The notes under the pieces were generated by a model, which made no database searches, had not been told where the DNA came from, and saw nothing but the letters and a program-made list of their open reading frames with translations. A stretch of 63,043 bases of DNA, counting the filler, from Jimgerdemannia flammicorona (taxonomy: Eukaryota), in NCBI GenBank assembly GCA_003990765.1. It is 3 parts of 3 records of this genome, joined end to end, with 100 filler letters (N's around TTAATTAATTAA, not from the genome) between each part and the next. Parts side by side here need not be neighbours in the genome. Positions count along the whole stretch, not along the records: positions 1 to 20,952 come from RBNJ01001560.1; 2 more parts are not named here. One strand, 5' to 3'. Positions within the stretch are counted from its first letter, which is position 1; each line of letters begins with the position of its first letter. This document shows positions 1 through 51,678 of the stretch, piece by piece. A program made the position numbers and the translations under genes.

Positions 1-9
1 AAAAAAAAA

Positions 10-1795
10 GACCTCTGTGTCTTCTTCATCTCCTTCCTCTATGTCTGGTAGGACTCCTTTGTAGACATTGATAGAGACTCATACCTTTCTTCCTCTGTAG
101 TTGATCTGCATCTTCTGGGCATTGAGGTCAATGATAGCCTTGGCCTTGTGAAGCCATTGGTTGCCAATAAGAATGTCATAGTTGGTGGTGCTTGTAACAA
201 TCACATCTACTGGGATAGTAGCTCCTCCTATCTTGATGGGGACTTCTCAGATTTTGCCAAGGGGGGTAGCTTATGTACCATCTGCTGTAACATAGACCAT
301 CTTGGTGGACTCTTCAATGTCCCAACCTAGGTGGTCAATTGCCTTCTTGCTCATGAGGCATCCTCCAGCACTAGTATCAATGATGGTATCAAAGATACAG
401 TCTTCAATCTGGCAGGGGGTATAGGCTGATGTCTTGTGCTGGTCTTTGGATTCTTCACCTGAGTTCTCAGATTCTTCTTGTGCATTGTGAGCTTCTACAA
501 TCTTGTACTCTTGATTCTTGATGGTAGTTGCAAGTCCTACTCTCAGCTGCTATCTGAAGGCAGGGACTTCAGCTAGCTGCCCAAAAGTGGCATTGACCTT
601 CTGTTCCTTGAAGTCCTTGTAGATGTCATACTGGTGGATCTTGGTCTTGTACAACTTCTGTTCCTTCTTACTCTTGCTTTCTCCTAAGACTGGAGTAGTG
701 CCTTCGATAATTTGGCAGATAGCTTCATCTAACTCCATATCTTGATCAATCTTCTCAGATTGGGTCTTGCTTTGAATAGTGACAGCTGGAGTCTTCTTTG
801 GTCTTCCAACTGGCTTGCTGTTGCTCTTCTTGTCATAGGGGTTCTGGTACCTTCAGTAGCAGGGTAGAATTCGAGCTCCTCATAGTATTCTTTATCATCA
901 GTATAACCAATCTCCTTGATGACTACTGCATTGGTTTGTTCTCTGGTTCTGCTAGCATTGCTTGGTTGGACTTTGCATCTTGTTTCGGTCATGCAACTCT
1001 TTGCATAGTGGCCTTCTTCTCCACATCTGAAGTATGTGATATTGTGTTCTTCTGTAGTAGCTGCAAATCTCTGCACTGGTCTCCTGTTGGTGCTTTGAAC
1101 TTCTCTAACAATATCACCAAGGTATACAGTCATCTTGGTGAACTGCTGGCAAGTTCTTCCACTGGGTCAGCTTTGGCTGTCTTGGGGGTAGGTGGGGTTG
1201 GTTGTCTGTTTACAACTGTGGCAGGTAAGATATTAGTTGACTTTGATGGCTCCATCTTGATACCAGTTATTTTCTCCATTGAGTGTTTGGCAGGGTGTCT
1301 GGCAGTCCAATATCTCTGTGCAAAGACCACTTTCTGATCAAGGGTCAGTGCAGCTGGAGTAGACCAGATTGCTAGGGCAATTTCGGAGTGAACTCCTTTG
1401 AGGAAGGTTGAATCTGCTATTTGTTCCTTGAGGTGGTCATTATAGCCAGCCAAGACAATCTGGTGGCAAATTCAGGTATAGAGTGAGTTGGGATCTTCAC
1501 TAAGTCTCTGGCAGATAGTATTGAGTTGATCCTTGAGAGCTTGCTTAATCTCTTCGGTATAATATGTTATTCTGAGGAAGGTCTTCATATTGGCAAGTTT
1601 GGCTGCACCAGCATCAGCAATGGTGGCTGCATTGAACTTGTCTCTGACAGGTCCTCTGAGGCTGACTGGTAGAAGGGCCAATTGAGCATCCACACCAAGG
1701 GCTCATATGGTAGCAAATTGTTCAAAGTCTTCAATGAAGGTCAGGATTGACTCTTTAGTAGTATATTCATAGAATGTGGGGGGACACATTTCCAT
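10..1795 (-). pseudogene. Gypsy A gag-protease polyprotein, disrupted
   Basis: ORF fragments 1472-1693, 1130-1453, 729-1133 and 550-738 join into gag with a zinc knuckle; aspartic protease motif downstream; several stops and frameshifts. Confidence 0.85.
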
Positions 1796-1899
1796 CTTAT
1801 CTTGAATTCTTGCAGCAGTGACTCTTGTAGTCAGGGTAGTTATTGTGGGGGTTGTTCATTTTTCAGCTTGAAAGTGAGGAATTCATCTTGAATCACCAG

Positions 1900-1912
1900 C
1901 CAATAGGCACCA
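1900..1912 (-). promoter_or_regulatory. Primer-binding site of Gypsy A (TGGTGCCTATTG)
   Basis: TGG-initiated segment 3 nt after the LTR's terminal CA; the priming tRNA cannot be assigned from this window. Confidence 0.65.
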
Positions 1913-1915
1913 AGT

Positions 1916-3461
1916 TGTCATGTAGTGGTCGCTGAGTCCTTCAAATATGTCAGATTCTCTTCAAGGTGTATCTCTTAGACTAACTCAAGTTGTTATAAGC
2001 AAGTTCTTATTAGAGTGCCTTCCTAAGGTCTTATAGTCCTCAAACTTCTTATCTTTAACTGTCTTGTTATCTTTTAGATTACTTGCAAGGAAGTGTGTGT
2101 AAGTGAAACCAGAACTGACTTTATTTTAGAGAAAATAAGAGGGGTATTTATACAAAATACAATTCAATGATTGCTAAGATATAAAGCTAAATATAAATTC
2201 CGATAACTAAAACTACTAAGTCTCAGAGTTGGTACTGATGGTTGTACAGGTTCAGGATACTGGCATTATTTAGTGTCACATCAAAATGCCAGTACTGGAA
2301 CAATTTCATATCACCTCAGAATACCAGTGCTGGTATTATCTAGTGTTACATGAGAATACCAGTACTGGCATTATCTAGTGTAACAAAGAACTTAGAGCAG
2401 AAAGTTCAGGATCATGGGGGCTTTATCATCATCATTACTGAAGGAGATGAGATCTGCGAATTCATCATGTAGGTCATGCGTTTCGCATACTTCACGTGCT
2501 TCAGGTATGTCACGTGGGATGATGTCATCAATGACATCATCATGTTCAGCTGTGGTGGGGAAATTGGGGACAAGGTCTGGAGCTCTCCAGTCTATGAGGT
2601 TCTCTTCCACAAAATAAGGAACAAATGTGGGGTCTTGGGGAGATCTAACTCAGATGCTTGGGCCTTGGAATACTGAGATCAATCCTTGTAGAAATTGATC
2701 TGGGTTGTCCTGAAAGATAGGGTGCCAGAAGTCTTCTACTTCTTCACTGCTGAGGGTGATGGTGGACCAGGCTTCTGTGGCCACCCTGGCTTTTAGTGCA
2801 TTGATACAGTGGGATAATAGGTCTCTGAAGTCTGAGACTCTAACATACTCCAAGTTGGGGATCGACCATAGTGCATGTCTGAAGATCTGATAGATCTTCT
2901 TAGCTGTCCTTGTTTTGTATATATCCATGGAAGTGGCATCTTGTAGCTCTTGGGTGCTGACCTCTGAGAACTTCCGGCAGAGGAGGTTTCCTATTTCATA
3001 CTCCTGCCATATTTGGAGGTATTTGGTAGCAATAGTGATCCTTGTTTCCATTTCACAGTAGTAGAGAATAAAGTGATAAGGGTCTGCAGTACTCAGGTTG
3101 ACACTAGGAGTTCTTCTTGAGCAGGTCCTCATGGCTCTTCTGATGTCTTGAAACATCCTTTCCTCAACTGAGATACCTTGGTGATTCCTTGACCTTGAGG
3201 TTTGGTGGGCAGCAGGCATTTCGTTTGTGGTAAGTCTTTGAGCTATTTTGGAATTGGTGGTTCTTGTTAGTTGCTGCTACTGCAGTTCCTTGATCCTTCT
3301 TTTATATTCTTCAGGATGCTTGTGCTGTAGTCACAATGACTCACAGTTGGTCATCATTGCTCATCTCATATGCCGTATGATCTTCTTGTGCTCTGATCTG
3401 GTGGCTTACAAGGAAAGGCTGTCTCCTGTGCTGATGTCATCATTCTAGGGTCACCATTACA
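1916..3461 (-). repeat. Gypsy A 5' LTR (~1.55 kb) with an internal ORF, a TATAAATACCCC box at 2141-2152 and ~32-bp tandem repeats at about 2255-2385
   Basis: Colinear with 35879-37420; TG/CA termini; adjacent PBS. Confidence 0.9.
2392..3357 (-). pseudogene. LTR-encoded accessory protein of Gypsy A (~321 aa, unknown function)
   Basis: ORFs 2650-3219 and 2392-2610 plus upstream sequence to ATG 3357 are one frame, broken only by TGA/TAG codons compatible with C>T changes; lies entirely inside the LTR. Confidence 0.75.
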
Positions 3462-6355: not shown

Positions 6356-7477
6356 TAGTGCTTTTAATGAATTGAATTGAGGCCCAATTCAATTCAATTT
6401 GAATTTCAATTTAAACTTAAATTTTTGAAATTCAATAACTTGACAAAAACATATCCAAATTTAATGATCATTATTATATTGGATTCACCTTGTTAAGACA
6501 AATCCAATAAGCTAAAATACATCAAATTTAGATATGTTTTTGTCAAGTTATTGCATTTTGAAGTTTGACTTTGAATCAGACCTCAATTCATGAACCTAAA
6601 TATTTGAAATTAAATAATGTGATGAAAACATGTCCAAATTTAATAATCTTTATTGTACTGGATTCACCTTATCAAGGCAAATCCAACAAGCTAAAATACA
6701 TCAAATTTGGATATGTTTTTATCACATTATTGTATTTCAAAGTTTGACTTCAAATTAGACCTTAACTTATAAATCTAAATTTTTGAAATTCAATATCATG
6801 ACAAAAACATGTCTAAATTTAATAATCTTTATTATACTAGATTCGCCTTATCAAGGTGAATCCAACAAGCTAAAATATATTAAATTTGGATATGTTTTCA
6901 TTAAGTTATTATATTTCAAAGTTTGACTTCAAATCAGATCTCAATTCACAAACCTAAATTTTTAAAATTCAATAACTTGATGAAAACATATCCAAATTTA
7001 ATGATCTTTATTGTACTGGATTTGCCTTATTAAGACAAATCCTACAGGCTAAATATATTAAATTTGGACATGTTTTCATCAAGTTATTGTATTCCAAATT
7101 TTGATTTTCAATTTCAAATTGAATAGGATCTCAATTACAAACCTAAATATTTGAAATATAATAATGTGATGAAAACATGTTCAAATCTAATGATCTTTAT
7201 TATACTGGATTTTTCTTATTAAGGTAAATCCAACAAGCTAAAATATATCAAATTTAGACATGTTTTCATCAAGTTATTTAATTTCAAAGTTTGACTTCTA
7301 ATTTTGAATCAAATCAGACCTCAATTTGATTCAAAAATTTTGAATCAGACCCCCAATTCAATTTGAACTCAATTTGATTCAAATCTAATTCAAATTGAAA
7401 AATTCCCAATTAAATTTGATTTGAAACACCCTCAATTCAATTTGATTTGAATTGATTCAATTTATTTGAGAGCACTA
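6356..7477. mobile_element. Non-autonomous hAT-type element/MITE with five ~180-bp palindromic tandem units
   Basis: TIR TAGTGCT...AGCACTA; 8-bp TSD tctgggat (6348-6355) / tctgagat (7478-7485). Confidence 0.85.
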
Positions 7478-7595
7478 TCTGAGATCTAGTCTCTTTTGGT
7501 AAATAAACAACCACATCTTTCACCAGTAACATTTGGGTGACACAAGACTCAGACAACACTTTTTACTATGTTTTTGGTATCTGACAACTATTGAC

Positions 7596-9512
7596 ATGGA
7601 TGGCAATGATCGAACTGGTGAGCATACTGGCCAGGGGGGTGGTGGTGCCTTTGGCTGGTAGCAGGTGGAGAGGAGGGGAGATGGTTTGGGGATGCCAGGG
7701 GCCTTGATGGCTAGCCAAGGCCCTGGTGGTGGAGGGAGGGGTAGTCTGAGGCAGAGAGGAGGGGAAAGGTCAACCTTTGCTGACAAGGTCAGAATGGAGA
7801 AGATGGCCTCTGGTCTAGATAGTTGGCTGGGCCTAGGGAAGGCATTGACAGCTACAGCTGGAGGACAGAGAGGTGTGCCCAGGGGAGTTTCAGATGGTAG
7901 GAGAGGAGTGGGAGTAGGGGCTGGAGATGTAACTATTGATGGGACTGTGACTGGAGATCTGGCAAAAAATCCAGATGTAACAGTAGTTGACAATTCAGGA
8001 CAGAGAGTGGGCATAAGGCCTGAGGACCTGGCAGATGGGGTGACAGGCATGGTGTCAGCCCCATTACTCAAGAAGTCGAGGTCAGAATTTATGGTCACAA
8101 TGTGTTTCTGGGACTTGGTGGTGACAGCGAGAATAATTTTGGGGCTGGTGGCACAGGAGGCAAAGGGAGCAGTGTCAGTGAAGTTTTTAAAGAGGAAGGA
8201 AGGGGTTGAGGTGGGGTTCGAGGAGGAAGATGCCTTGCTGGCAGCCTTGGAGAAGGGGGTGATAGTTGGTAGGGTTGTGGTCCTTATGGCCAGGTGCATA
8301 TGCTAGGATCCCTGAGTGGTGCAGTTGATGGTATTGGATCTCCCTATGGTGTCAAAGAAGAGGACCAGGGAGTTGGTTGTGGAGGTGATCAAGGAGTATG
8401 GAGAGATTGTGGATATTGAGTTCAAGGTCTGAGAGGGTATGGAGCTTTGGACTGGTGACATTGATATCAGGGTGAGGCTGGCTGAGAAGGAGAATATGGG
8501 GAAGTCGAGGGACTGGTCAGTGATGCTGAGGTAGAGACTGGTGGAGTGCAAGGTCATGAGGGTGAAGGGGACCCAGAAGGAGGAGGAAGACCTGTTGGAG
8601 GCTCTGGAGGATCTGGAAGGGGCAGTTGTGAGGAGAAGATTGGCCTGAAAGGAGTTTGAGGCCAGGACAGTGGTGGGGGAGGTGGATGGGAAGAGGGTCC
8701 AGATAGAGAGGGGGGCCTGGGAGAAGATGCAGGGGAGGAAAATCCAGAAGGAGCTGCTGGTGAAGTTGGGTGGGGGTAGAGCTAGTGGAAGCTCAGGGGA
8801 GGGGGTTGCGAGATTGCAGGAGAGTGCCTGGGCTGAGGGGGGTGAAAGGGCCTGGGGTGGGGCTTGGATTGGAGTGGAGGAGGAGAGGGAAGGCAATATA
8901 GAGGCAGATGTAGAAATGAGTGAAGGTGTATGCCCTCAGTATAGTGTCCTGGGTAGAGCTGAGGGGGAGAAGGAGCTGCTGGATGTGCCAGATGAGGAGT
9001 GGGATGAGTCAGTGAGGAGGAGTGTGCTGGTGGACCCTAAGGTAGATGGGGGGCAAATCATTCAGAGTGTGGCAGAGGTGGTGGATAAGAAGAAGTGGAT
9101 GTGGAAGACCCTGGAAGGGGTAGTGGTAGAAGAGCTGGGGGGAGAGGATTTCAGGGTTATGCAAGAGAGGTATTGGGAGGATATCCTACAGGGGGAGGAG
9201 GTGCTGAGGAAGATGAGGAATGAGATCCTAGCTATTCTCCTGGAGTTGGTTAAATATCAAGTCGATGATCAGAGAGAAGAGGAACTTAGGAGGATTGTGA
9301 GTGACAGAGCATTATACTTGTGGAACTCAAGAAAGAGACCAGAGAAGTGGCACACAGTCTGCATAGACTACTGGTCAGAGATGGAGGTAGTGGATGGGGT
9401 GGAATGTCAGGAAATCTTAGAGGCACTAGATGCTCAGGCTAATGCAGAGAGTGACTTGGAAGCTGAACAGTGCTTGGATCTGACTGAAGATGAGATGAGC
9501 ATGGAATACTAG
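7596..9512 (+). pseudogene. LINE ORF1 (Gly-rich N-terminus, acidic C-terminus)
   Basis: Fragments 7665-8306 and 8670-9512 are in one frame; homologous to the intact 41081-42002. Confidence 0.8.
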
Positions 9513-9543
9513 GTTGGGGTCTCTATTACAATATTCTTTCAAT

Positions 9544-12500: not shown

Positions 12501-13200
12501 CCTGTGGCCTGAAGCCTGGCAGAGGGTTAGAATTGGTGAGGAGTGGGATTGAAATGGACTCTGGCTTTGGAGCAAATGGGTGAGGCAGTGGCTGCCCCCC
12601 AAGTTCTGGGTGGTGTGGTGGTGAGTCCTATGGCAGAATATGATATTAAACTATTGGTCTGGGCACTTGGTGGATGGTGGAGTATTCGAGTGTGAGGAAT
12701 GTTTCAATGTTGATCAGAAGGGAGGAGTGGTATAAATACCTGAACATTGGCTTGGCAAGTACGAGATTTTGAAGGAGTTTTGGAGATATATCATAGACTG
12801 GTTAGGGTTGTGTGCCTTGGAGGGAGGGGAAGGGGGGAGATGGGGAGAGCTCTGCCAGAGACTGGTGGGTGGGATTGGGGATGAATGGCTGACTCTTGGT
12901 TGGGCTCTAGCTATATGGGTTGGATTGGCTGGGCATTGGGTTCATATATTTGAGGAGGGATGGTGGGTTGGAGTTGGGGATAAGGTGGTATATTGGGAAT
13001 GGTTATTATTGGACATTTTGAATAGCTGGTGGTGAGGGTGGGGGCCAGGTGGGGGGAATCACAGGGGTTTGATATAGTATATCTCTCAGAAGAGTGGTGG
13101 AAGGATTCAGGTAGTGGGTGATTGGGTTGTGCTCAGGCAGGGAGAGGTCGAGGGGGGAGAGTTGGGTCCATGGGACATTGGTTGAGGGTTTGGGGTGACA
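9544..13200 (+). pseudogene. LINE ORF2 (AP endonuclease + reverse transcriptase)
   Basis: Motifs in ORF fragments starting at 9514, 10987, 11428 and 11950; many premature stops. Confidence 0.88.
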
Positions 13201-14098
13201 TTGTATTGTTAGAATTATAGACAGCAGTAATAAAGGGCAGTCTAAGGAACTATAAAAAAAAAAAAAAAAAAAAAGCAATAGAATCTCAATAGATATATAA
13301 AATTAAGCATAATAGTAATAGTGATATAGAGTGATATAAAGCTTAATTTGTAATAAAGAGGTATTTACAAGAATATAGTATAGACTATAATGAAACCTTT
13401 TTTCCAGTATTTAAGCTTACTTTATATAGAATACTTCTTGTGATTAAAGCTAAATATAACTATGAAATCTACCAAATGGATATTAAGACAGTCTTCTTGA
13501 ATAGTAACATAGATACAGAGCTATACATCTATTAACTATAAGGATACAAACTATATAATGATAAACAAAAGAAGCTTATATATAAGTTATATAAAGGTCT
13601 TTATAGTATCAAATAAGTGGCAAGACTGTGGAACTAAAAAATTGACAAATATCTCTTGAATAACAGATTTAAGCATTGTGAGACTAATCTATATATACAT
13701 ATATATCTAATATACATCCTTAGAAATAGTATACCTAGGAATTTGGATAGATGATATCATTCTAATTAGAATAACAAGTAAGATTAATAATGTAAAGATA
13801 ATACTATATCAGAAGTTTAAGATAACAGATATGAATAATATATCCTATTTTCTTAGAATATCAATTATATATAATAAGTACAAGTATACAATATACTTAT
13901 CATAAGCTATATATATTTAGACTGTACTTAAATGATTTGATATGAATAAATATAAATCTGTTAGAATATCTATAGAGATATCTATAAGACTAAAGAAGTC
14001 CAACACTATACTTAAAGATAGTGATATCCCCTATTGACAAGCTATGGCATTCCTCATATATCTTATACTTGGGACAAGATCTGATATATTATATGTAG

Positions 14099-15121: not shown

Positions 15122-15159
15122 AACTTTGAAATATACTTTTGATCTATTTATTGAAGAAA

Positions 15160-25298: not shown

Positions 25299-27359
25299 TG
25301 TAAGAGGGTTACTTTTTAGGGTGACCATTATGTAGTTCTGGAAAGGTTTTCTGGATATTCTGGATATTCTGGAAGACCGTTTTCTTATAGTCAAGATCAA
25401 TTTCGTATGGAGTACGTCCTCTATGCTTATTGATTTCAAGATCGGGTTGATGTCTCAACCAAAGTCCTTTTTTGGACTAGTTCTGGATGTTCAGGATTTT
25501 CCATATTTCAGGAAGTTCAAGAAACTAAGACCAGCTTAGTTGAATTGGTGTATCGCTGCAGACAATACCCAATTAGGAAATTTCGTGACGTGGTTAGGAA
25601 TGGGAGCGGATTTACTTAAGAGTAGTTTGTGGGTTATAGAATAGGTTTATTTGCTATTCATGATATTGCTATACTAGAAGTAGTTGTGTGAAGAGATATT
25701 GTGGGGAAGTATTTAGAAATATTCTTGTGTATTTGAGTCTGTTCAAGTCTGAGATTCTGAGGTCTGGGGGAGGGGGTATTTATACTAGTGAGGGGCTATC
25801 TGGACTATGCTAGATATGGATATAGCACTAAGTGCCTTGCTGAGTCAGAATATAGTCATGTAGTACAAGTGTGATCTGATATGTCAAGAGATCGTCTGAC
25901 TGCTGAGTCAGTTCACAGTCACGTCGTACAATGCTAATCTAACTATACTATGACTGCTAGGCTATTTATGAGTTTAGGCACTATCTGGGTAGTCTTCGAT
26001 GATATCACCATCGATTGTATCATCTCTGATGAAGTAGTCATCTAGGAATAATGGTTTGTGGATTACTTCTCCTTGTTCGCTGAGGTAATAGTACATTGGA
26101 ACTTCGTCTCCATCTCACAGAATAGCATCGTCTGTCTCATATGCTGGATAAGGTATTGGTGAATGAAGAAGTAGTGCATCATCTTCACTTTCATCGGATT
26201 CGCTGTCTGCATACCTTCTATAGGTTACGGCACTGTGAGTTGCGAGGTTGTAGTATGCTGGCGGCTGTGGTTCATGTTGCTCGTACTCTGGTGGTGGAGT
26301 GGTTGGTTCGATTTTGAGGGTTGTCTGGAGGTACAGGTTGTGTTCTCCGGTCTCTTCATTGTAGTTGAAGTAATCAGGGGTGAATGCGAGTTGGTATTCA
26401 TGCCAGTGGTCATTGTCCCAATAAGTCTCGTATACTGTTATGAACTATTGTAAGTTTATTGGCAAGGTTGGCAGAGTGATCAGGGTTGGCAGAGATCCTT
26501 GACTAGAGGTCATGTCGGTATCAGAGGGATCATTGTCTTCTGCTTCATCTTCATCGAAGTAGATTATATCATAGATGTCCTTCATGGCGTATCCAACTTG
26601 GGGCATTTGCAGGATTTGATCATTAGGGTGTGAGAAGATTCTATCTGTAGTTTCGATGTACTCGAGGTACTTGTGGTTGAGTTCTTATATCATGTTATCG
26701 ATTTGGCCATAGGACAGGGTAGCAACCATTTCGCTGGTAGTGACTTGGAGGCAGGGAATAATGGTACTATACTCATAGAAGAGTTCTCGATGTTTGCGGG
26801 CGATGAGCTTCTAGTGTTGAGACATCTGGGTAATGTCTGTATCGTGGTGGTATTCAACCATGTCTTCCAGGAGGCGGCTGATCTGGTAGTAGCTTGAGAT
26901 TTGTCTGATTCGGTGGGCCTTGCTAAGCATGTTCAGAGCATTCCATCAGGCTTCCACGAAGTAGAGGGGTGCCAGGCTATGGATATTCATGAGGAGCAGA
27001 GGGGGTGTGGCTCAGTTGACAATGGCATTCCAAATGTCAGCGCGGATATGGTTGTAGATCTCAGTGGTCATGTTTGTATATTTGGAAGTTGTGGTTGTTG
27101 TTTGTTTTGGTTCTCTGATTCGACGTGTCTCGGTGCTCGGTATATATGCATTTGGTCCTGATTGGTATGATTCTGTTTGTGTAAATCTTGTATTCCGTGA
27201 CTTCGTATTGACTTAGCTTTGTGTGCTGTGACTTCGGTTTGACTCAGCTTCGTGATCAAGCAGGTGATTTCCAGGTTTATTCAGAGGTCGTGTGTGATTT
27301 CAGTGCCTTGTTCAGAGGGTGATGTATAATTTCAGTGACTTAGAGGTTGTGCGCTTACA
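25299..27359 (-). mobile_element. Solo LTR of Gypsy family B (2061 bp) inserted in the PLE pLTR
   Basis: Reverse complement of 49648-51678; TG...CA ends; 5-bp TSD GAGCC at 25294-25298 and 27360-27364; the empty site is visible at about 21635. Confidence 0.93.
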
Positions 27360-35209: not shown

Positions 35210-35878
35210 TAGATTACCAAACTATATGCTACTAAACTTTAGCTTTTATAATAGATGTATGATAAAAAAAGCTTCCTGATGACCTTTTTAGAAATAGATA
35301 AAGCAAGTAACTGGTATTCTTAATATAATATATATAGATATATATATCTATAGTCTCATATAAATGGCAATATACTTTAGAAAGAAGTATTTTATTACTT
35401 TCATTGACAATTATACTTATAAAGTCTATATATACTTTCTTATGATAAAGAATGAGATATTTAAAAAATTCTGAGAATTTAAGACAATTGTAGAGAATGA
35501 AATGAGATATAAGATACAGACCCTATACTTAAATAATAGTAAGAAATATATCAACAAAGCTTTCAGATACTTCTTGAAGAAGTATAATATCCAATACTCT
35601 ATAATAGCTCTCTATACATCTGAGTAGAATAGTGTAGTAGAGTACTTCAATTAAACAATAGTAGAGATGACTCAAATAATGATGAATATAACTAACTTAC
35701 TATACTTCTTCTGGGCTAAAGTAGTAAATATAATAGTATATATCTAAAATTATTATATTTCTTGAGCTTTAAGTAAAGACTCTAGCAGATTCAATAATAA
35801 TTAATAATCTAGAGAACAATAGTGATCTTATCTCTAAAGAATTATAAAGTAGATCTAAGCCAGATATTTTATATCTAT
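35210..35878 (+). mobile_element. Copia integrase fragment, same family as 3958-14098
   Basis: KYFITFIDNY motif at about 35385; colinear with 5410-5750. Confidence 0.8.
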
Positions 35879-38800
35879 TGTTACATAGTGGTCACTAAGT
35901 TCTTCAAATACATCAGATTCTCTTCAAGGTGTATTTCTTAGACTAACTCAAATTTGTTATAAGTAAGTTCTTATTAGAGTGCCTTCCTAAGATCTTATAG
36001 TCCTCAAACTTCTTATCTTTAACCATCTTATTATCTCTTAGATTGCTTGTAAGGGATTGTATGTAAGTGAACTAGAACTGACTTTATTTCAAAGGAAATA
36101 AGAGAGGTATTTATACAAAATATAATTCAATGGTTGCTAATATATAAAGCTAAATATAAATTTCAATAACTAAAATAAAATGCTGGGACACAGAAAACTA
36201 CCAAGTTTCAATATTGGTACAGATGGTTGTATAGATTCAGGATACTGATATAATTTTGGTAATATAGAAAAAGAGTGCTGAAATAATTCTGAGTTATATA
36301 AGATCAGAATACCAGTAGAGAAATAGCTATTATACAGGAAAAGAATTCTGGCATAATTCAGTGTAACTAAGAGACTTAGAGCAGAATGTTCAGGACTATG
36401 GAGGCTTTATCCTCATCATTACTAAAGGAGATGAGATCAGTGAATATTTTGTTGTACATTTCATGTATATCATGCAGGATGACATTATTACCAATAATGT
36501 CATCACATTTGGTGGCAGCAGGAACAAGGAGGTCTGGGGCTCTCTAGTCTATGAGGTTCTCTTTCACAAAATAGAGAACAAATGTGAGGTCTTGAGGAGG
36601 TCTAACCTAGATGCTTGGGTCTTGAAATATTGAGATCAATCCTTGCAGGAATTGATCTGAGTTGTTCTAGAGAATAGGATTCCAGAAGTCTTCTACTTCA
36701 TCACTATTGAACTGGGCTTCTGTAGCCACTTGGACTTCTAGTGTATTAATATAGTGGGCTGACAGATCTCTGAAGTCTGAGACTCTAACATACTCTAAGT
36801 TGGGGATTGACTATAGTGCATGTCTGAAGATCTGATAAATCTTCTTAGCTATCCTTATTTCATATATATCCATAGGAGTGGCATCTTGTAACTCTTAAGA
36901 GCTGACCTGTGGGAACTCTCAGCAGAGAAGATTTCCTATTTCATACTCCTGTCATATTTGGAGACATTCAGTAATAATAGTGATCCTTGTTTCCATTTAT
37001 GGTAGTAGAGAATAAAGTGATAAGGATCTCTAGTACCCAGGTTGAGGCTAGGAGTCCTTCTTGTGTAGGTCCTCATGGCTTTTCTGATGTCTTGGAACAT
37101 CCTTTCTTTGACTGAGGTATCTTAGTGATTTCTTGATCTTGAGGTTTGGTGAGCAGTAGGTATTTTATTTATAGTAAGTCTTTGAGCTATTTTGAGATTA
37201 GTAGATATTGTTGGGTTACTGCTACTGTGGTTTCTTAGTCCTTCTTTTATATTTCTCAAGATGTCTATACTGTGGTCACAATGACTCATCGTTAGTTATC
37301 ATTGCTCATTTTATAGCCTGGGTGAGTTATACCATATGATCTTCTTGTGCTCTAATCTGGTGGCTTGTAAGGAAAGGCTGTCTCCTGTGCTGATGTCATC
37401 ATTCTGAGGCCACCATTATATCTTTCTCCTAAATAAGAATCTTCTTAAATATCCTTATTCATTGGTCCAGTTCTGAAAAATTTGTTGATCTCATAACCTC
37501 TGGCAGGGGGTTGAAAAGTGGTATTTATAGACTGGTATCTTCTTTATGTATTTTGGTATAATAGTGAAGAGTCACTCCCTTTATATAGAGTAAGGGCCTG
37601 ATTCTGATCTTGACCAATCAGTTAATAGTTCAAACTCCTTTAGCTTCAAAAGTCTTATAGATGAGTAGTTACTGGTGCCATATCTCTTAAAGAATGGTCC
37701 AGACAGATTGCTTGCTGATTATGGAATATACTGTTACAATTTGCAGACTAGAACCTTGCAGGTGGTCATCATATTTTGCTTCTCTTATATAGGTTTATAG
37801 TACTTCTTGAGTCTGTTTCTGTGTACTGTGATAGGCAGTATAGTCTCTGAGATTTTTCTAAGCCAAAAGGTAGTTCTCTTAATATCTTATATATAGAAGG
37901 GTCCTTTCTATTTAGGCTCCAGTTTTCACAACCATGAGGCTTCTACCATATTTTAATACAGTAGGACCTTTTCTCTAATTTAGATGGGTTCTAGGGTCTT
38001 GTGATTCTTTTCTGCATTCTTCTTTATCAGTGCTTGTAACTTGATGATATGATCTTCAGCCTTCTTTCTGATTTGGTATAGTCTCCAGATTTCTGAGTCA
38101 ATCTGTCTCTAAGTTAGGTCTAGATTTGTGGCTGAGATTCCATTGGAATCTTCTTCTCTAAAGAGCAGTTCTCTTGGGGTAAAGTATATACTCTATAACT
38201 GTATATCTCATAGGACAGAGAGGGCAGTTGGGAGGTAGTTATCCCAATTCTCATATGTATCTGAGATCTTCACTAGGATGTTCTTGAGGGTCTATTTCCT
38301 TGAGGGTAGTACATAGTAGTCTTGATGTACTGAATATTGTATTTCTGATACATTATCTCATAAAATCTATTGACAAATTCTGTACTGTAGTCTGTGATGA
38401 TTTACTTTGGTATCTAGTAGTGATAGATGATTTCTCAGTACAGGAAGTTGGCTATAGAGAGGACATTGGCTTCTTGTAATGCTCCTGTCTCTATCCATTT
38501 AGTAAAGAGATCTACAATAACTATAATATAGCAGTTTCCTGATAGTGTTACTGGTAGTGGCCCAATGATATCTATTGCAATATGGTAGAAGGAGATAGGC
38601 TCAATTCTTGATGACCCAGGTGTCTGGTCTTACTGATCTTGTTTCTGTTTTTGGCACTTATCACACTCTTTGACAAATTGGCACAGGTCTTCTTCCATCT
38701 TAGGCTACCACATAGTTCTTCTTACCTTATCATATATGTTAGTTCCTCTTAGATATCCTTGTTTATATACTTTCTTTATTATTTGATACTTCTTATATTT

Positions 38801-42105: not shown

Positions 42106-42158
<53 letters not shown>

Positions 42159-43411
42159 TGAAGCAGAAGACAATGATCCCTCTGACACCAATATGATCTC
42201 TAGCCAAGGATCTCTGCCAACCCTGATCACTCTGCCAACCTTACCAATGAACTTACAATAGTTCATAACTGCATATGAGACTTATTGAGACAATGACCAC
42301 TGGCATGAATACTAACTTGCATTCACCCCCGATTACTTTAACTACAATGAAGAGACCAGAGAACACAACCTATACCTTCAGACAACTCTCGAGATCAAAC
42401 CAACCACTCTACCACCTGAGTACAAGCAACATGAACCACAGCCACCAGCATACTATAACCCTGCAACTCACAGTGCTGTAACCTATAGAAGGTACGTAGA
42501 CAGCAAATCCAATGAAAGTGAAGACAATACACCCATCCTTTGCCCACCAACACCTTATCCAGCATACGAGACAGACGATACTATCCTGTAGGATGGAGAC
42601 GAAGTTTCAATATACTATTACCTCAGCAAAGAAGGAGAAGTAATCCACGAACCATTATTTCTAGATGACTACTTCATCAGAGATGATGCAATTGATGGTG
42701 ATGTCATCGAAGACTATCCAGACAGTACCTAAACCCATAAATAGCCTAGCAGTCATAGTATAGTTAGATTAGCCTTGTACGACGTGACTGTGAACTGACT
42801 CAGCAGTCAGACAATCTCTTGACATGTCAGATCACACTTGTACTATGTGACTGCATTCTGACTCAGCAAGGCACTTAGTGCTACATCCATATCTAGCATA
42901 GTCCAGATAGCCCCTCACTAGTATAAATACCCCCTCCCCCAGACCTCAGAATCTCAGACTCGAATACACAAGAACATTCCTGAATACTTCTCCACAATAT
43001 CCCTTTACATAACTACTCCTAGTATAGCAATATCATGAATAGCAAATAAACCTATTCAATAACCCACAACCCACTCTTAAGTAAATCCACTCCCTGTTAG
43101 GTCCCACTCCTAACTCCATCACAAAATTTCCTAATTGGGTATTGTCTGCAGCAATACACCAATTCAACTAAGCTAGTCTTAGTTTCTTGAACTTCCTGAA
43201 ATACGGAAAATCCTAAACATCCAGAACTAGTCCAAAAAAGGACTTTGGTTGAGATGTCAACCTGATCTTGAAATCAATAAGCATAGAGGACGTACTCCAT
43301 ACGAAATTGATCTTGACCATAAGAAAATGGTCTTCCAGAACATCCAGAATATTCAGAAAACCTTTCCAGAACTATGTAATAGTTACCATAAAAAGTAACC
43401 CTCTTACAACT

Positions 43412-43423
43412 TGGTAGCAGCGG
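43412..43423 (+). promoter_or_regulatory. Primer-binding site TGGTAGCAGCGG, probably initiator tRNA-Met
   Basis: 3 nt after the LTR; resembles the complement of eukaryotic tRNA-iMet 3' ends (TGGTAGCAG). Confidence 0.75.
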
Positions 43424-45361
43424 TTTACAATCCAATTCTGCTTCAAAATGCTTCCTCACCCTGCTACAAACCCTTCTGAGAATTCCTACAAGTTGGTATA
43501 AAGCCCAACCTCTGAACTGGAATTTATCCTGAACTATCTGACAATCTGGAGAGAATTGAACCTGATGTACAAGAACAATTTGACCTCCACACCTGCAACA
43601 AGTGGAACAAACTTCATTCAAAGAAAGAAGTACTCAGGTTAAACCAGCAAATAGGTGAAACCCTATTCACTGAACTCCTTGCACTACACCCAGCAAGTCA
43701 AGACAAAGAAGGTCTTATTGAAGCCTTCTTTACTCTTCTCAACAAGAGTTTTGTCAGCTCTACAAATCCGAGTAACCTAGGATAACCAGCAGCAGTCTTT
43801 CTAGCCTTAGTTTCTCACAAAGCCCAAGCCTCTATAGCTAAGTGGCTCAACTCTACCAACTTTCACCACACCAGGACCAAGACTGCCTTATACTACTAAT
43901 TCCAGAACAGCAAGGCCCGCCATATCCTTAAAGAAGAAGCAAGAGAAACCCTTCATCAACTACCTGACCCCGAACCTGAAGCAGGCCCTGCTACAGCCCT
44001 ACCTGAATCTGAAACCAATACTGAACCTGAACTTAACTTTGAATTAAGTCCATCTGAAATCAGATATACAACTGATTCTGTCTACTTTGATACCAAGCAA
44101 ACCCAATTACACAGGGACCAAACCGAAGAAGAGGAGGAGTATCTCAGTGAATTTGATCCCAGATATATCACCGAAGGAGAAGTACCTCCATCAGGACAGA
44201 ATACACCTACACAGTAACAAACAGTTATCTATCAAGCCCTCACTCCAGATCCACAACTACTACTCCAGCAACTTACACAGACCCAAAGAACACCATCACA
44301 CTCCACACTAGTATCTCAAGTAGTACCAGTAACACCACTACCAGTAGTCCAACCATTACTGCCTTAGCTGAACAGATCCGACCTACCAAAAATCTGAGCC
44401 TACCTACCTTCAATGGTACTGTACAAGAAGTCCAAAGCTTCATTAGTATAGTTGATACTAACTTTGAAGCCAATCAATGGACCAATGAGCGAGTTGCCGA
44501 CTGTGTTCTGACAAACAATCAAGACCACACCCTGGAACAACTCTTTGCTACCACTACAGCCTATGTCCACCGAGTTGTTACATTCTTCCGAGGACCTGCC
44601 AAAGAATGGTGGCAAACCCTCTCTGAAAAACCCCTCACATGGGATACCAGACCTGCAGTAGTTGCCCAGAATACAGCAAACAATGCCCCAGATATGGAGT
44701 CCATCCTGCAGCCTCTGGACTCAAACAACTTATAATTGCCCAATACTGCAGCAAAACCATGATCGCTGAATCCCAAGTAAAACTCTGCAACCTCAAATTC
44801 AATATATATGGCAAAGAAGAATTCGAAACCTTCTGTACAAAACTTGAGTCACTCCTGAACACTGTTGGCCTAGGATACATTGCCAATGATGAAGCACAAA
44901 ATGGTACAAGAGCAGACCATTTGTTTGATGCTCTGCCTGAATGGCTTACTAGAAAAATCCAAGAACAAGGTCGCCCAGTTGGTTGTGATCACCAACAATG
45001 GTGCCTGGCAAGAATCAAGACTATGGTCAAGCGAATTCTAACAGCTGGACCAATTCTGCCCCGAAGGCAATTCAACAACAAGGAAAAGACTTGGACCAAG
45101 AAAGAAGAACCCAAGCATGAAGCATCTCGAGCTCCCTCCACATCCACCTCTTGGACACCCAGAAATCATGAACCCACCCAGCTAAGTACCTTCAAGAAAC
45201 TTACTGAAGGCGAAAGGAATGAACTTCAAAGAAGTGGAGCATGCTTTTATTGCCAAAAGACAGGACACATGGCCAGTGCCTGCTCTAACTGAAAACCCCA
45301 AACAGCAACATGAGCAACTGTCACCACTCTGCACTACCTCAACAACCTGACCACCAGAACA

Positions 45362-45769
45362 CTAGACTTTGTCAAGCTAAGACAAACTGCTAAGGCCCCA
45401 ACCAAAGAAAGTCAAAAAGCAGCTGGATATGACCTGTATGCAGCCAAAGAAGCTACAGTTTCTAACCGAGAAGTCAAACAAGTCTACACAGGAATCAGTA
45501 TCCAAATCCCTGAAGGACATGTTAGAAGAATATGCTGTCGCAGCAGCCTAGTGTTGAAAGAACTCTCAGTAGAAGGAGGAATCATTGATGAGGATTATAT
45601 AGGCGAAATTATTGTCCTCATCCGAAACCACAGTTGGACACCCTTCAAGATTCCTATTGGCTTCTGCATTGCCCAGATCCTATTCGAAAAAATCAAGTCA
45701 ACCCTGACAGTCAAAGAAGTTCCTAAACTATTGCCCACTATCTGAGGATCCAAAGGATTTGGCTCATCA
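45362..45769 (+). pseudogene. dUTPase domain within the Gypsy B polyprotein
   Basis: All five trimeric dUTPase motifs: AGYDL, RSSL, GIIDEDYIGEI, IAQIL, (R>*)GSKGFGSS; in frame with gag. Confidence 0.92.
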
Positions 45770-45949
45770 AACAAAGCCCCAGCCCAATCTACCATGAGCA
45801 AAGAAGAACAATTCTATAAGAAGATCGAAGATGGATATGTACCAAGTGGCTGATGCCCTCATGGTATTGGAATGTACTCTTCCCGAATGATTGACAATTA
45901 CTTCTCTTGTGTCAATGAACTGGCTCAAAGAAGAACCAACAGAAGAAAA

Positions 45950-48900
45950 AGGCTCCTACAACTGAAATCACTACCATCGGATCAGACAAACTGCTCACCC
46001 TTAAGGCTTTTGTCAATGGAGCACCTGTCAAGATAATGATAGACAGTGGCGCCTCAGGCAACTTCATCAATGAAGAGACAGCCAACAGACTCAAGGTCTT
46101 TACCTCTCCAGTACAGCAAACTCAAGCAGTTGCTACAGCTGATGGAACCTCACATATCATCAGCAAAGAAGTCCACAATCTACCCTTCCAAATTGGCGAC
46201 TACCGAGTATATGTTACCCTCCAAATCGTACCACTTCTTGACAATGAAATCATCCTTGGGACTCTATGGTTAAAACAAGAGAACCCCATGATTGATTGGG
46301 TAAACCATTCTCTGACCATCAAGAAAGGATGCCACAACTTCAAACTATAAGGCGAAAAGGACTCACTCAACTCTAGTGACCCTGGACCAAAGATCACCCA
46401 CATTAACAAGCTACAACTCAAAAAATTGGCCAAGAAATGCCCTCTCTTCGCCATCTCCATCCAACCATCCAAAGGAGAATCTGAGAACTCTGAAGAAGAT
46501 TTTTCCAAAGTTGATAGCCATGTCAGACCACTACTCTAGAAATTCCAAGACATATTCCCAAAGAAGCTCCCAAAAGGCCTACCTCCCAAATGAGCAGTAG
46601 ACCATATAATCAAGACTATCCCAGATGCCAAACCAGCCTTCAAGTCAATCTACCACATGTCTCCAAGAGAAATTGATATACTCAAGAAGGAAATCAACGA
46701 ACTTCTGGAACAAGGATTCATCAGACCCAGTGTATCACCCTATGGTGCACCAGTACTCTTCATTGTCAAGAAAGGAGGAGATCTGCGAATGTGCATTGAC
46801 TACCATGATCTCAATGAACAGATCATCAAGAACTGTTGCCTACTACCAAGGATCGATGAAATATTCAATAGGCTCACTAACCCACAATTCATGAGCTCCT
46901 TTGATCTGTGAAATAGTTACTGGCAAATTGCCATAAAAGAAGAAGACATCTACAAGACAGCTTTCTGAACTCACTATGGATACTTTGAGTTCCTGGTTAT
47001 GCCCTTTGGCTTAACTAATGCTCCAGCAATCTTCCAGACACTGATGAATACCATTCTGCATCCATATCTGGATAAATTCATTATTGTCTACATTGACGAC
47101 ATCCTAGTCTTCAGCAAAACTCTGGAGGAACATCTCGAACACCTTGAACTAGTACTACTGAAACTCCAAGAAAACTGACTCTTTGCAAAACTCAACAAGT
47201 GCGAATTTCTCCTGAAAGAAATTCAATTCCTTGGACACATTGTCACTCCAAATGGAATCAAAGTGGACCCCAGCAAAATCTCTGCAATCAAGGGTTGGCC
47301 CAGACCCAAGAAACTGAAGGACCTCTAGTCATTCCTGGGATTAGCAAACTATTATAGGTGATTTGTTGCCAACTTTGCTAAAATCACTACTGCCCTCATC
47401 TAAATGACCAAGCACAGCAAGAAACAAGAACAACCCTGAACCATGAAACAAGAGAAAGACTTCAACAATCTTGTAAATTGGGGACACAAGCAAGATATCA
47501 CCTTTCAAGCACTGAAGGATGCCTTGATAACCACTCCAGTACTTCAAGTAGCAAATTCTGCCCTACCATATGAAGTCACTACTGATGCCTCTGACCTAGC
47601 TCTTGGAGCAGTACTCATGCAAGAAGGACACCCTGTGGCCTATCACTCCCACAAGTTCAATGATGCTGAAATCAACTATGCAACTCATGAGAAGAAAATG
47701 CTAGCCATCGTAGACACTCTGATCAAATGGTGACCATATCTAGAAGGAGCACACTTCACTGTATTGACTGACCACAAGTCATTAGTCAACATCAAGACAC
47801 AGGCTACTCTTTCCTGAAAGTAAGCCAGATGGATGAAAGTCCTCACCAACTTTGACTATGAAATCCAGTACCATCCTGGCAAGGAAAATATTGTTGCCGA
47901 TACAATCTCCAGACTACCAATCGAAGAGGTTATCCAAACTCTGACCTTAGTTACTAACACTATCATGGAACAAATCATTGCAGCATGTGCTGATGATAAG
48001 AAAGCTCAAGCACTCTGAGAAATCCTAAATAGTGATGATGCTGATAAGCATATCTGATACAACCAATACAAACTCAAGAATAATGCTATCTACTACAAGG
48101 ACAGATTGTATGTCCCAAACAACCGAGACCTCCGAAGGACTATCCTATTCGAATACCATGATGCTCCTACAGCCAGACATTTAGGATTTGACAAATGCTA
48201 TGAAGTTATGTATCTCCCGGAACTTCTATTGGCCCTACATGGCAGATCAGCTCAAAACCTACATCACTTCCTGTGATGCCTGCAAACAAAACAAGTCCTC
48301 AATACTAGCAAAACCTGGCTTACTCCACCCTATCTCAGTACCATCTGCAAATTGGGAACAAATCTCCATGGACTTTATTGTATAACTACCCCGAACCAAG
48401 AATGGGAAAGATGCAATTGTTGTCTTTGTGGACTACCTCAGCAAACAAGCCCACTTTGTACCTACTACCACTACTGCAACGGTACCAGACATAGCCATAC
48501 TCTTGTTTAATAATATCTTCCACTATCATGGTCTTCCTAAGATCATTGTTAGTGATCAAGATCTGAAATTCACTAGCTACTTTTGGAAAGTCCTCCATGC
48601 ACACCTTGGAACAAAACTTGCACTATCTACAGCCTTTCACCCAGAAACTGATGGTCAAACTGAAAGAATGAACTGAACTCTGGAACAAATGCTAAGGAAC
48701 TATGTTTCCTATAGATAAGATGACTGGCATGAATACCTCACTGCAGTTGAGTTTGTCTATAACAATAGCAAGCAAGCCTCTCTTGGAATGACCCCATTCT
48801 TCACCAATACTGGACAAAATCTAAACACCTCTTTGACACTTATCTGAACCAATGAAGAACCCTCTACAGTTAAAGCTATTGAAGAATTCTTACTCCGAAT

Positions 48901-49425
48901 GCACAATTTAAGCCAGATTGCCATTGAGAATTTATCACGAGCTCAAGAACAACAATCACAGTACGTTAACCAACACCACCAAGAAGAAACTTTTGATATT
49001 GGAGAAAAAGTTCTACTAGATATCAGAGGATACTGAGTTGACAACCTCAAGCACAGACCATCTACAAAGCTGAACAGCAAGTTCATTGGACCATTTGAAG
49101 TCATTGCACAAGTCTCTCCAACCTCCTACAAACTGGTGCTACTGGATACCATTAAGATTCACCCAGTCTTTAATGTTCAACATCTCAAGCGATACAATGA
49201 CAATGATGATGAGCTATTTCCAAACCGAACCACCAAACCACCTGCACCTATTATCATTAATGATCAAGAAGAGTATGATGTTGAACAAATCCTCAACAAA
49301 CATGGCAACAAGAGCCACCCTGAGTATCTTGTCAAATGGAAAGGTTACCCAATCTACGATGCAACCTGGGAACCCAAGACCAATCTCTAGAATGCTACCG
49401 ACCTAGTTCAGGAATATGATTCCTT
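45950..49425 (+). pseudogene. Gypsy B pol (protease, RT, RNase H, integrase, chromodomain)
   Basis: ORF fragments starting at 46036, 46657, 47443, 47833, 48428 and 49136; chromodomain YDVEQIL...YLVKWKGY...ATWEP. Confidence 0.93.
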
Positions 49426-49647
49426 GAACAACTAGAACCAAATACTCCACACCTATCCATACATACTATATACTATCCTCCTGAACATTATAATTATTGC
49501 AAACCAAACCAAGAACTCAGCAAAACAAGACAAGAATACTGACCCTTTGGAAAAATAGCCAAACTGAAAGCAAGCCTATTCTCCCTGTACCACTGAACAA
49601 AATTAGAAGGCCCTGACAAGGACGTCGAAAGCTAAGAAGGGGAGAGT

Positions 49648-51678
49648 TGTAAGCGCACAACCTCCAAGCCACTGAAATCACACATCACCCTCTGAATAAA
49701 ATCTGGAAATCACCTACCGATCATGAAGCTGAGTCAAACTGAAGTTACAGTGCACAAAGCTGAGTCAATACAAAGTCACAGAACACAAGATTTACACAAA
49801 TGGAATCTTACCAATCAGGACCAAATACATATATACCGAGCACCAAGACATGTCGAATCAGAGAACCAAAACAAACAACAACCACAACTTCCAAACACAC
49901 AAACATGACCACTGAGATCTACACCTATATCCGTACTGACATTTGGAATGCCATTGTTAACCAAGCCACACTCCCTCTGCCCCTTATGAATATCCATAGC
50001 CTAGCACCCCTCTACTTTATGGAAGCCCGATGGAATGCTCTGAACATGCTTAGCAAGGCCCACTGAATCAGACAAATCTCAAGCTACTACCAGATCAGCT
50101 GCCTCCTGGAAGATATGGTCAAACACCACCACAACACAGACATTACCCAGATGTCTCAACACCAGAAGCTCATTGCCTGCAAACATCGAGAACTCTTCTA
50201 TGAGTACAGTACCATTATTCCCTGCCTTCGAGTTACTATCAGCGAAATGGTTGCTACTCTGTCTTATGGCCAAATCGATGACATGATACAAGAACTCAAC
50301 CAGAAGTACCTCGAGTATGTTGAAACCACAGACTGAACCTTCCTCCACCCCAATGATCACATCCTGCAAATGCCCCAAGTTGGATACGCCATGAAGGACA
50401 TCTATGATATAATCCACTTCGATGAAGATGAAGCAGAAGACAATGATCCCTCTGATGCCAACATGACCTCTAGCCAAGGATCTCTGCCAATCCTGATCAC
50501 TCTGCCAATCTTACTGATGAACTTACAACAGTTCATAACTGCATACAAGACTTATTGGAACAATGACTACTGGCATGAATACCAATCTGTATTCACTCTC
50601 GATTACTTCAACTATAATGAAGAGACTGGAGAACACAATCTGTACCTTCAGACAACCCTTGAGATCGAACCAACCACTCCACCATCTGAGTACGAGTAAC
50701 ATGAACCATAGCTGCCAGCATACTATAACCCCACAACTCACAGTGCCATAACCTATAGAAGGTATGCAGACAGCGAATCCAATGAAAGTGAAGACAATAC
50801 ACCCATCCTTCGCCCACCAATACCTTATTCAGCATATGAGACAGACGATGCTATCCTGTAGGATGGAGATGAAGTTCCAATATACTATTACCTCAGCAAA
50901 GAAGGAGAAGTAATCTGCGAACCATTATTTCTAGATGACTACTTCATCAGAGATGATGCAATTGATGGTGATGTCATCGAAGACTATCCAGACAGCATCT
51001 AAACCCATAAATAGCCTAGCAGTCATAGTATAGTTAGATTAGCCTTATACGACGTGACTGTGAACTGACTCAGTAGTCAGACGATCTCTTGACATGTCAG
51101 ATCACACTTGTACTACATGACTGCATTCCAACTCAGCAAGGCACTTAGTGCTACATCCATATCTAGCATAGTCCAGATAGCCCCTCACTAGTATAAATAC
51201 CCCCTCCCCCAGACCTCAGAATCTCAGACTCGAATACATAAGAACATTCCTGAATACTTCTCCACAATATCCCTTTACACAACTACTTCTAATATAGCAA
51301 TATCATGAATAGCAAATAAACCTATTCAATAATTCACAACCCACTCTTAAATAAATCCACTCCCTGTTAGGTCCCACTCCTAACCCCATCATGAAATTTC
51401 CTAATTAGGTATTGTCTGCAGCAATACACCAATTCAACTAAGCTGGTCTTAGTTTCTTGAACTTCCTGAAATACGGAAAATCCTGAACATCCAGAACTAG
51501 TCCGAAAAAGGACTTTGGTTGAGATGTCAACCTGATCTTGAAATCAATAAGCATAGAGGATGTACTCCATATGAAATTGATCTTGACCATAAGAAAATGG
51601 TCTTCCAGAACATCCAGAATATCTAGAAAACCTTTTCAGAACTATGTAACAGTTACCATAAAAAGTAACCCTCTTACA
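49648..51678 (+). repeat. Gypsy B 3' LTR (2031 bp), TATAAATACCCC at 51192-51203
   Basis: Direct repeat of 42157-43408; full-length match to the solo LTR; TG...CA ends. Confidence 0.95.
49905..51002 (+). pseudogene. LTR-encoded accessory protein of Gypsy B (up to ~365 aa, unknown function)
   Basis: ORFs at 49800, 50115 and 50370 share one frame. Stops at 50064, 50334 and 50697 are sense codons (CGA, AGA, CAA) in the other LTR copies. Confidence 0.8.

Follow-up and report, generated by a model that had tools for sequence, protein, structure and literature searches.

This analysis concerns a window of 63,043 nucleotides, filler included, from Jimgerdemannia flammicorona (GenBank assembly GCA_003990765.1), which joins 3 parts of 3 records of the genome end to end (positions 1 to 20,952 are from RBNJ01001560.1) and is a mosaic of decayed transposable elements. 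Two families of long terminal repeats (LTRs), here called A and B, were set apart by self-comparison, and both carry an open reading frame (ORF) on the sense strand within the U3 part of the LTR. The account that we favour, and which is likely as a whole, is that two diverged Ty3/Gypsy families possess a homologous U3 gene. One LTR-borne accessory protein family, common to two divergent Gypsy families, had been proposed in the initial annotation of this DNA; the proposal finds support in sequence profiles that include distant metagenome relatives of the A protein and in the placement of both genes in the LTR. Coordinates are collected in Table 1. The limits of the LTRs were taken from copy alignment and from reading of the ends and, in the case of family B, additionally from a target-site duplication.

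The sense-strand ORF was found in both A LTRs and in all three B LTRs of the window, one of the latter being cut by a gap. For A and for the solo B LTR, it is placed inside the TG...CA repeat unit and before the TATA box, and the A frame lies wholly within U3, upstream of TATA. The gene starts about 245-260 nt from the 5′ end of the LTR (the ATG is about 243 nt inside in A and about 258 nt inside in B), and its end is separated from the TATA box by about 190-240 nt. The truncated B 5′ LTR retains the C-terminal 190-odd codons together with its TATA box. It follows from the location that the U3 gene is regenerated in both LTRs in each cycle and retained by solo LTRs. The same box, the 12-mer TATAAATACCCC, had been noticed downstream of both ORFs, and it was indeed located at 2141-2152 (−) in A and at 42922 (+), 51192 (+) and 25773 (−) in B, that is, in every A and B LTR bar the decayed second A copy. 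As a 12-13-mer common to LTRs of 1.5 and 2 kb it has a BLASTN E of 1.3, and eight of its bases are a plain TATA box. Likeness between A and B LTR DNA outside the ORF, which amounts to this 13-mer and, ahead of the ATG, 26 nt rich in A and C (E 0.009), was set aside as unconvincing.

The start of the A gene at ATG 3219 agrees with the full-length relatives P0005, P0010 and P0011 and with the ORF of the metagenome contig L001 (see below). These and other relatives, whose identity ranges over 28-85%, have open frames of about 271-291 codons with a common C-terminal end at 2392; since they stay open there, the true A gene should reach 2392, a single stop interrupting the window copy. The range of 2392..3357 first assigned to the gene can therefore be kept in part. 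Its 3′ end holds only if the TGA at codon 190 is read through, while its 5′ limit is too far, as the 46 codons 3357-3220 contain two in-frame stops and the full-length relatives start at 3219. Two pairs of protein strings had been quoted for the likeness of A and B. Both A strings are present unchanged within the ORF 2650-3219 (−), at 2980-3081 and 2851-2916. The second B string is likewise found unchanged, at 50163-50228 (+); the first matches none of the copies in full but combines two of them, for a stop interrupts it in the 3′ LTR copy and the solo copy has other differences.

A leader of about 17 nt, AAAGACTTACCACAAAC, abuts the A start codon in the window (3219-3245, minus strand) and in L001 (350-378) and is near-identical in the two, though the proteins are 43% identical. 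Its reverse complement contains GGTAAGT, a textbook 5′ splice-site word. The leader could be a conserved cis element or chance.

Relatives in public sequences were the principal source of evidence for coding. A word-based search yielded 28 candidates, among which four A relatives at 70-85% identity are open across the stop of the window copy and end at the common C-terminus. With the A alignment as query, HMMER was run exhaustively over 1.84 billion representatives and gave 8 matches at E <= 1e-3, of which six were kept (P0004, P0009, P0010, P0011, P0012 and P0015). The remaining two were judged spurious and left out of the alignments from the outset: P0013, with ankyrin-like repeats (9 stretches), and P0014, another repeat protein (5 stretches). 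The A-type sequences that were kept are open for 138-342 residues, at identities to P0005 that go down to 47, 43, 28 and 20%, and the distant ones retain the blocks W-x-EYEI, AKK-hHQhFRH-P, hPxL, LS-x4-L and F-[QE]-GP-x-I. A metagenome scan for relatives revealed a single locus, L001, with an intact 291-codon ORF of 43% identity to the A protein; at 1535 bp, the contig is too short to display LTR ends. In the case of B, P0016 (84% identity, 128 residues) is open from the same start as the B ORF, and P0008 (63% identity) keeps its frame open through the final 247 residues, even where all three window B copies have a common stop. No relative of A or B was found in viral contigs. Judged from independent public sequences that hold the frame open at 28-85% identity, the U3 ORF family is real coding sequence.

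Comparison of the two full-length B copies points in the same direction. Between the B 3′ LTR and the solo LTR, the 1098-nt ORF has 117 substitutions, distributed over codon positions as 44/22/51, and no gaps, against 75 substitutions and 4 gap events in the 960 LTR columns outside the ORF. The ratio of nonsynonymous to synonymous changes (pN/pS) is 0.37, a value which is hard to read because 107 of the 117 differences are transitions and such a bias lowers the neutral expectation. The differences would fit divergence under constraint followed by decay. It might be objected that the ORFs are relics, either a captured fragment of a host gene or frames kept open through the youth and A-richness of the copies. 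All five window copies are indeed broken and none is active (A has one stop, full-length B 5-6 stops each), which also counts against the account that we favour, and substitutions between the B LTRs reach 10.7% in the ORF vs 7.8% elsewhere. Nevertheless, frames of 200-342 codons are open at only 28-47% identity with their motifs conserved, the gene occupies the same place in two families with 24%-identical proteases, indels are absent from the 1098 nt in spite of the gap events in the flanking LTR, and no relative with the look of a cellular gene or with a Pfam domain was found. We hold the relic explanation to be very improbable.

In four public runs, contigs cover the window positions 1915-3459 many times, with 1874 contigs of 80-99% likeness in one soil-metagenome run. 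Their depth is near zero at 2435-2590, which is the variable acidic-tail region. At most of the well-supported differences a T or A in the window stands against a C or G in the contigs; because nearly all differences are of this kind, the window A copy appears decayed by C-to-T type transitions. The contig differences reflect this decay of the window copy and are uninformative on selection. In L001, a 33-nt direct repeat (170-202 and 1481-1513, 82% identity, 1311 bp apart) brackets the ORF and may mark a repeated unit.

The relation of the A and B proteins was examined by profile and by pairwise comparison. Alignment of the hidden Markov models (HMMs) of the two families was significant, and it fell in the register of the ungapped match of the initial annotation. 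With 5 (close), 9 and 10 A-type sequences, hhalign gave E values of 0.33, 0.0042 and 3.8e-5, the register remaining constant; with 10 sequences, the alignment has 71% probability and spans 122 columns (A 21-144 vs B 8-129) at about 17% identity. The real scores, 39.8-41.6, were not approached by any of 360 column shuffles. None of 200 shuffles of all B columns (mean 14.3, standard deviation 2.3, maximum 21.6), of 100 shuffles inside the B N-terminal domain (maximum 22.8), or of 60 shuffles of 12-column blocks, by which local composition is preserved (maximum 20.6), reached 28, and the reversed B alignment scored 16.3. E stayed at or below 1.2e-4 upon removal of any one of eight sequences. Independent support was provided by HMMER, in which the 10-sequence A profile matched P0016 with 30.7 bits, whereas 5000 shuffles gave at most 8.6 and the reversed sequence −0.8; with P0015 left out of the profile, 16.4 bits were obtained vs 9.9 in shuffles. 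A six-frame scan of the window with the A profile at E <= 1 returned nothing beyond the A copies and, in both full-length B LTRs, the B ORF over its N-terminal part and in the correct frame. Taken together, these results make it very likely that the N-terminal domains of A and B are homologous. As far as the alignments reach, the homology is limited to this predicted helical domain of about 120 residues.

Several observations weigh against homology and were the ground for considering that the two U3 ORFs are unrelated, i.e., that chance or convergence produced helical proteins of similar composition at the same place in the LTR. The ungapped A-B match, by itself, is at chance level. In BLASTP of A against the solo B copy it is the top match, with 24/99 identities and E 0.22, while no match to the other B copy was reported. 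Over five A-B pairs, 91, 242, 309, 385 and 718 of 1000 shuffles attained the real Smith-Waterman score. The hhalign E is insignificant with the close A relatives only, as given above, and it goes back to 0.0039 without P0015, a bridging sequence that bears much of the profile signal, with a library-search E of 7.2e-4. The reverse search, with a shallow B profile, placed no A-type protein above shuffles, and identity in the aligned domain is about 17%. Both proteins do have acidic tails, as had been pointed out, with net charges of −16 to −44; the tails are not alignable. A colinear C-terminal motif of the form [YF]-acidic-I-x-W (YFVEENxIDW in A, AYETDDAILx and YFIRDDxIDG in B) has E 0.5 in BLASTP and hhalign and was not counted. 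To these points it must be replied that the score climbs steadily with the diversity of the A profile, that P0015 is itself tied to the other nine A-type proteins at E 6.6e-10, that no column shuffle comes near, including the 60 of 360 that keep local composition, that the HMMER score is far above 5000 shuffles, that the B ORF is the sole non-A match of the six-frame scan, and that gene position and order of helices are colinear. An unrelated origin of the two ORFs is, in our estimate, improbable.

The elements that host the gene are different. Their proteases are 24% identical (23/96, E 1e-6). Differences in gag, primer-binding site (PBS), dUTPase and chromodomain had been claimed, and the first three could be confirmed: the gag regions have the zinc knuckle alone in common, the sequences following the A and B LTRs are unlike, and a dUTPase (Pfam, 4.3e-31), placed between gag and protease, is present in B, while the A sequence from zinc knuckle to protease yielded none. 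Family B has a chromodomain (Pfam, Chromo 1.1e-14), in addition to RVT_1 (8.6e-33), RT_RNaseH (5e-31), rve and SH3_Tf2-1 (1.7e-15). Its order of protease, reverse transcriptase (RT), RNase H and integrase with a C-terminal chromodomain is that of a Ty3/Gypsy chromovirus, and the internal region has many stops and frame changes. Family A is represented in the window by the gag zinc knuckle and protease only, its RT and 3′ part falling outside. On these comparisons, the A and B host elements are deeply diverged. With its identity of about 17%, the accessory domain has diverged to roughly the same degree as the remainder of the elements. This agrees with a gene already present in a shared ancestor of both families; exchange may also have taken place.

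A bolder idea is that the LTR constitutes a small gene cassette, in which the beginning of U3 (250 nt) would supply the promoter of the ORF and the LTR poly(A) signal would terminate its message, such that every LTR, solo LTRs included, would make a trans factor which switches on or protects the family, and that the cassette moves between Gypsy lineages by recombination. Movement between lineages would explain the presence of the gene in elements with 24%-identical proteases; we consider the idea as a whole doubtful, with a small chance of being right.

Structure prediction with AlphaFold2 (AF2) and ten sequences gave an A model with a helix bundle of predicted local distance difference test (pLDDT) 80-95 over about residues 60-160. 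Helices are predicted at 18-31, 47-83, 89-95, 100-113, 117-122, 128-132 and 136-150; a weak hairpin at the conserved PYFVEENxIDW block follows, and then a disordered tail (217-271, pLDDT about 30). The A protein is thus modelled as a soluble-looking helical domain with an acidic tail. The B model, from few B sequences, has a pLDDT of 31 and is unusable for fold comparison, a further weakness in the case for homology; its predicted helices (2-21, 30-52, 56-75, 85-102, 105-115 and 121-141) map onto the A helices in the hhalign register. In the tails, about one third of the residues are FWYLIMV; with the net charge and, in A, the low pLDDT, they have the make-up of an acidic, bulky-hydrophobic disordered segment, and A-type tails preserve the short motifs DLIxF and VLNF[LT] amid acidic runs.

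Known families were searched for in several ways. No Pfam family was found, SWI-SNF_Ssr4_N, RAMP and ATG5_HBR being sub-threshold at E 0.06-0.09 and taken as noise, and a PDB sequence profile search gave 0 matches at E <= 10. Foldseek against PDB and viral models (BFVD) gave none at E <= 1e-3 with a model that is confident over ~100 residues. For P0005, Protein Atlas offered no lead (best feature score 0.83, structure template modelling score <= 0.33). No env or fusion family was detected in Pfam at E <= 1, in a scan made with no dedicated transmembrane predictor. By these searches, the protein family is previously undescribed and has no known domain.

What the gene might do was considered from its location and from the models. 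In the genomic RNA, a U3 gene is missing from the 5′ terminus and comes after pol and the polypurine tract, at the 3′ terminus; a subgenomic message would thus be required. Such a message might be spliced, as for retroviral accessory genes, or might be initiated by a promoter within the first 250 nt of U3 and terminated by the poly(A) signal of the LTR itself. The product would act in trans, its helical domain docking on LTR DNA or on a host factor and its acidic-hydrophobic tail, with DLIxF and VLNF(L/T) in A-type proteins, serving as an activation or recruitment module. Foamy-virus Tas combines two parts, one for DNA binding and an acidic one for activation. By analogy, and provided that the family is real, the protein may tentatively be regarded as a trans-acting regulator of the element's own expression in the manner of Tas, at somewhat less than an even chance. 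Two results speak against such a transactivator: the N-terminal domain is about neutral (net −3 to +5), and VIA-align against 48,161 chains gave a best Z of 3.7, below the level at which the tool is meaningful. About 20 of 50 VIA-align rows are by title helix-turn-helix (HTH) DNA binders (TetR, ParB/SopB/KorB/VirB, sigma domain 4, MarR, DeoR and CENP-B, Z <= 3.7), aligned at about residues 65-153, and at this sub-meaningful Z they are a lead only; no Pfam HTH family was found in the A-type proteins.

Alternatively, the homologous family could be real and act after transcription or against host defence, as an adaptor for RNA export or packaging (Rev, CERV) or as an antagonist of silencing or mutation, in which case the acidic tail would bind a host protein without activating transcription. 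The N-terminal domain is not basic, unlike many DNA binders, and no DNA-binding family was recovered by Pfam or PDB sequence search; the heavy transition decay of the window copies would give a counter-defence role a plausible use. On the other hand, no RNA-binding or known suppressor domain was found either (Pfam, PDB, Foldseek), the arginine-rich N-terminal stretch of close A copies is not conserved in distant members, and the present data do not separate this alternative from the transactivator idea. A precedent for RNA export exists in a Ty3/Gypsy element, namely CERV (PMC10309623). We rate a post-transcriptional or counter-defence function as rather unlikely, next in order after the transactivator.

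Table 1. Features of the LTR families A and B in the 63,043-nt window.
Feature	Position	Strand	Remarks
Family A gag and protease	1..1133	−	zinc (CCHC) knuckle ORF 729-1133; protease Pfam match within 1-699
PBS-like sequence (TGG) adjoining A LTR	1895..1914	−	
Family A LTR	1915..3461	−	1547 bp, TG...CA; 5′ LTR, element extends beyond window start
A LTR TATA box TATAAATACCCC	2141..2152	−	about 240 nt past ORF end; AATAAA 27 nt further on
A ORF, C-terminal continuation past single stop	2392..2649	−	conserved hairpin motif and acidic tail; read-through with X
A U3 ORF, open part	2650..3219	−	189 codons, ATG 3219, TGA stop 2650-2652
A N-terminal domain, predicted helical, very likely homologous to B	2779..3159	−	about residues 21-147; hhalign A 21-144, HMMER positions 5-126
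Family B solo LTR	25299..27359	−	TGTAAG start, CTTACA end; from copy alignment
B U3 ORF, solo LTR	25974..27071	−	365 codons, 6 internal stops, no frameshift
Second family A LTR	35878..37420	−	decayed, frameshifted ORF copy; flanks AAAGA / ATAGA
Family B 5′ LTR	42155..43408	+	truncated by N stretch 42003-42102; from self-comparison
Family B internal region	43409..49647	+	gag (zf-CCHC), dUTPase, protease, RT, RNase H, integrase, SH3_Tf2-1, chromodomain
Family B 3′ LTR	49648..51678	+	about 2031 bp; polypurine tract directly before
B U3 ORF, 3′ LTR	49905..51002	+	365 codons, 5 internal stops, no frameshift
TATA box of B 3′ LTR	51192..51203	+	about 190 nt past ORF end

The two A LTRs (1915-3459 vs 35878-37418) are 78.8% identical over 1595 columns in self-BLAST, and the second of them is probably a solo LTR. 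The B copy on the minus strand is a true solo LTR, flanked by the 5-bp target-site duplication GGCTC (27360-27364 and 25294-25298). Compared with the 3′ LTR, it has an extra tandem duplication of ~35 nt near its 5′ end (window 27290-27359, minus strand).

The rest of the window has features of other kinds. Two pairs of 44-base N runs are located at 20953-21052 and 42003-42102; at the second, the B 5′ LTR loses its 5′ part, and the run just past it gives poly-lysine in translation. Strand asymmetry is very strong over 8000-26000 and 40000-42000: from 8 to 22 kb most bins of 2 kb, and likewise 40-42 kb, have a GC skew of +0.39 to +0.56, and three further bins, up to 26 kb, lie at +0.22 to +0.32. 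Repeat copies at 7517-8516, 41002-42001 and 51708-52490 (inverted) are 76% identical, and the ORFs of the skewed regions have no Pfam match. Fragments of a non-LTR-type reverse transcriptase occur at 10987-12330 and 19302-20946 (RVT_1 E 0.0023, under the Pfam cut-off), the second copy being 63% identical. A 4.4-kb inverted duplication (52491-56935 vs 61569-57119, 87% identity) has end repeats of 530-700 bp at 52519-53223, 56404-56951, 56928-57631 and 60859-61559, as well as a 403-codon ORF (53694-54905, minus strand) of no Pfam family; the whole, 52491-61569, may be another, unclassified element type. A tandem array at 6388-7421 has a period of 179 bp and about 4-6 copies at 82-84% identity. 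A low-complexity array at 39207-40396, with 319- and 375-codon C/L/S/P/I/Y repeat frames on the minus strand and internal repeats of 68-74% identity, is probably a minisatellite and not a gene.

Accessory genes set complex retroviruses apart from simple ones, and only few accessory genes of LTR retrotransposons are understood. Retroviral accessory genes in or overlapping U3 are sag of mouse mammary tumour virus (MMTV), the bel genes of foamy viruses and lentiviral nef. The U3 ORF is like them in that U3 is used for coding at the 3′ terminus of the genome, which would call for a subgenomic message. It differs in that its hosts are env-less Ty3/Gypsy elements; no similarity of sequence or fold to them was found by Pfam, PDB and Foldseek searches, the last with a model confident over ~100 residues. 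Searches of open-access text found no LTR retrotransposon that carries a conserved protein gene within U3. The LTRs described here would be carriers of a protein gene as well as promoters, solo LTRs keep the gene, and in at least one soil-metagenome run the family is present in great abundance.

The nearest category among retrotransposons is that of the additional ORFs (aORFs). As in these, the U3 ORF is an extra sense ORF after pol, sharing the strand of gag-pol and occurring in most family copies, with no similarity to cellular genes and of unknown function. The aORFs are located in the internal region, outside the LTR, whereas the U3 ORF is inside the LTR, so that it is duplicated at both ends and retained in solo LTRs. 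In the Pfam scan and the model, no transmembrane or env-like character was apparent. The brtn frame of Boty is cited as an additional ORF and, in a review, is grouped with antisense ORFs. ORF0 of the rice elements Retrosat2, RIRE3 and RIRE8, which have 3-kb LTRs, is described as fast-evolving, of unknown function and conserved across related families (PMC3485330). It resembles the U3 ORF as an extra ORF in long-LTR Gypsy elements; it is internal, before gag-pol, and from plants. In bdelloid rotifers, the same ORF3 types occur in divergent retroelement lineages, suggesting modular sharing of genes (PMC5408684). Those ORF3 proteins are recognisable enzymes or env-like and encoded in the internal region, in contrast to the U3 ORF, which has no known domain and lies in U3.

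A further counterpart in kind is CERV of the Ty3/Gypsy element Cer1 of C. elegans, a lineage-specific regulator from a spliced message with no homologs outside its group, for which export of genomic RNA was proven experimentally (PMC10309623). Both are lineage-specific proteins borne by Gypsy elements; the function of CERV is experimental, while that of the U3 ORF product is inferred only. If the U3 ORF product regulates transcription, RNA fate or host silencing, retrotransposons would have independently invented control of the Tas/Tax/Rev type, and the accessory gene would also be a marker for tracing recombination between element lineages.

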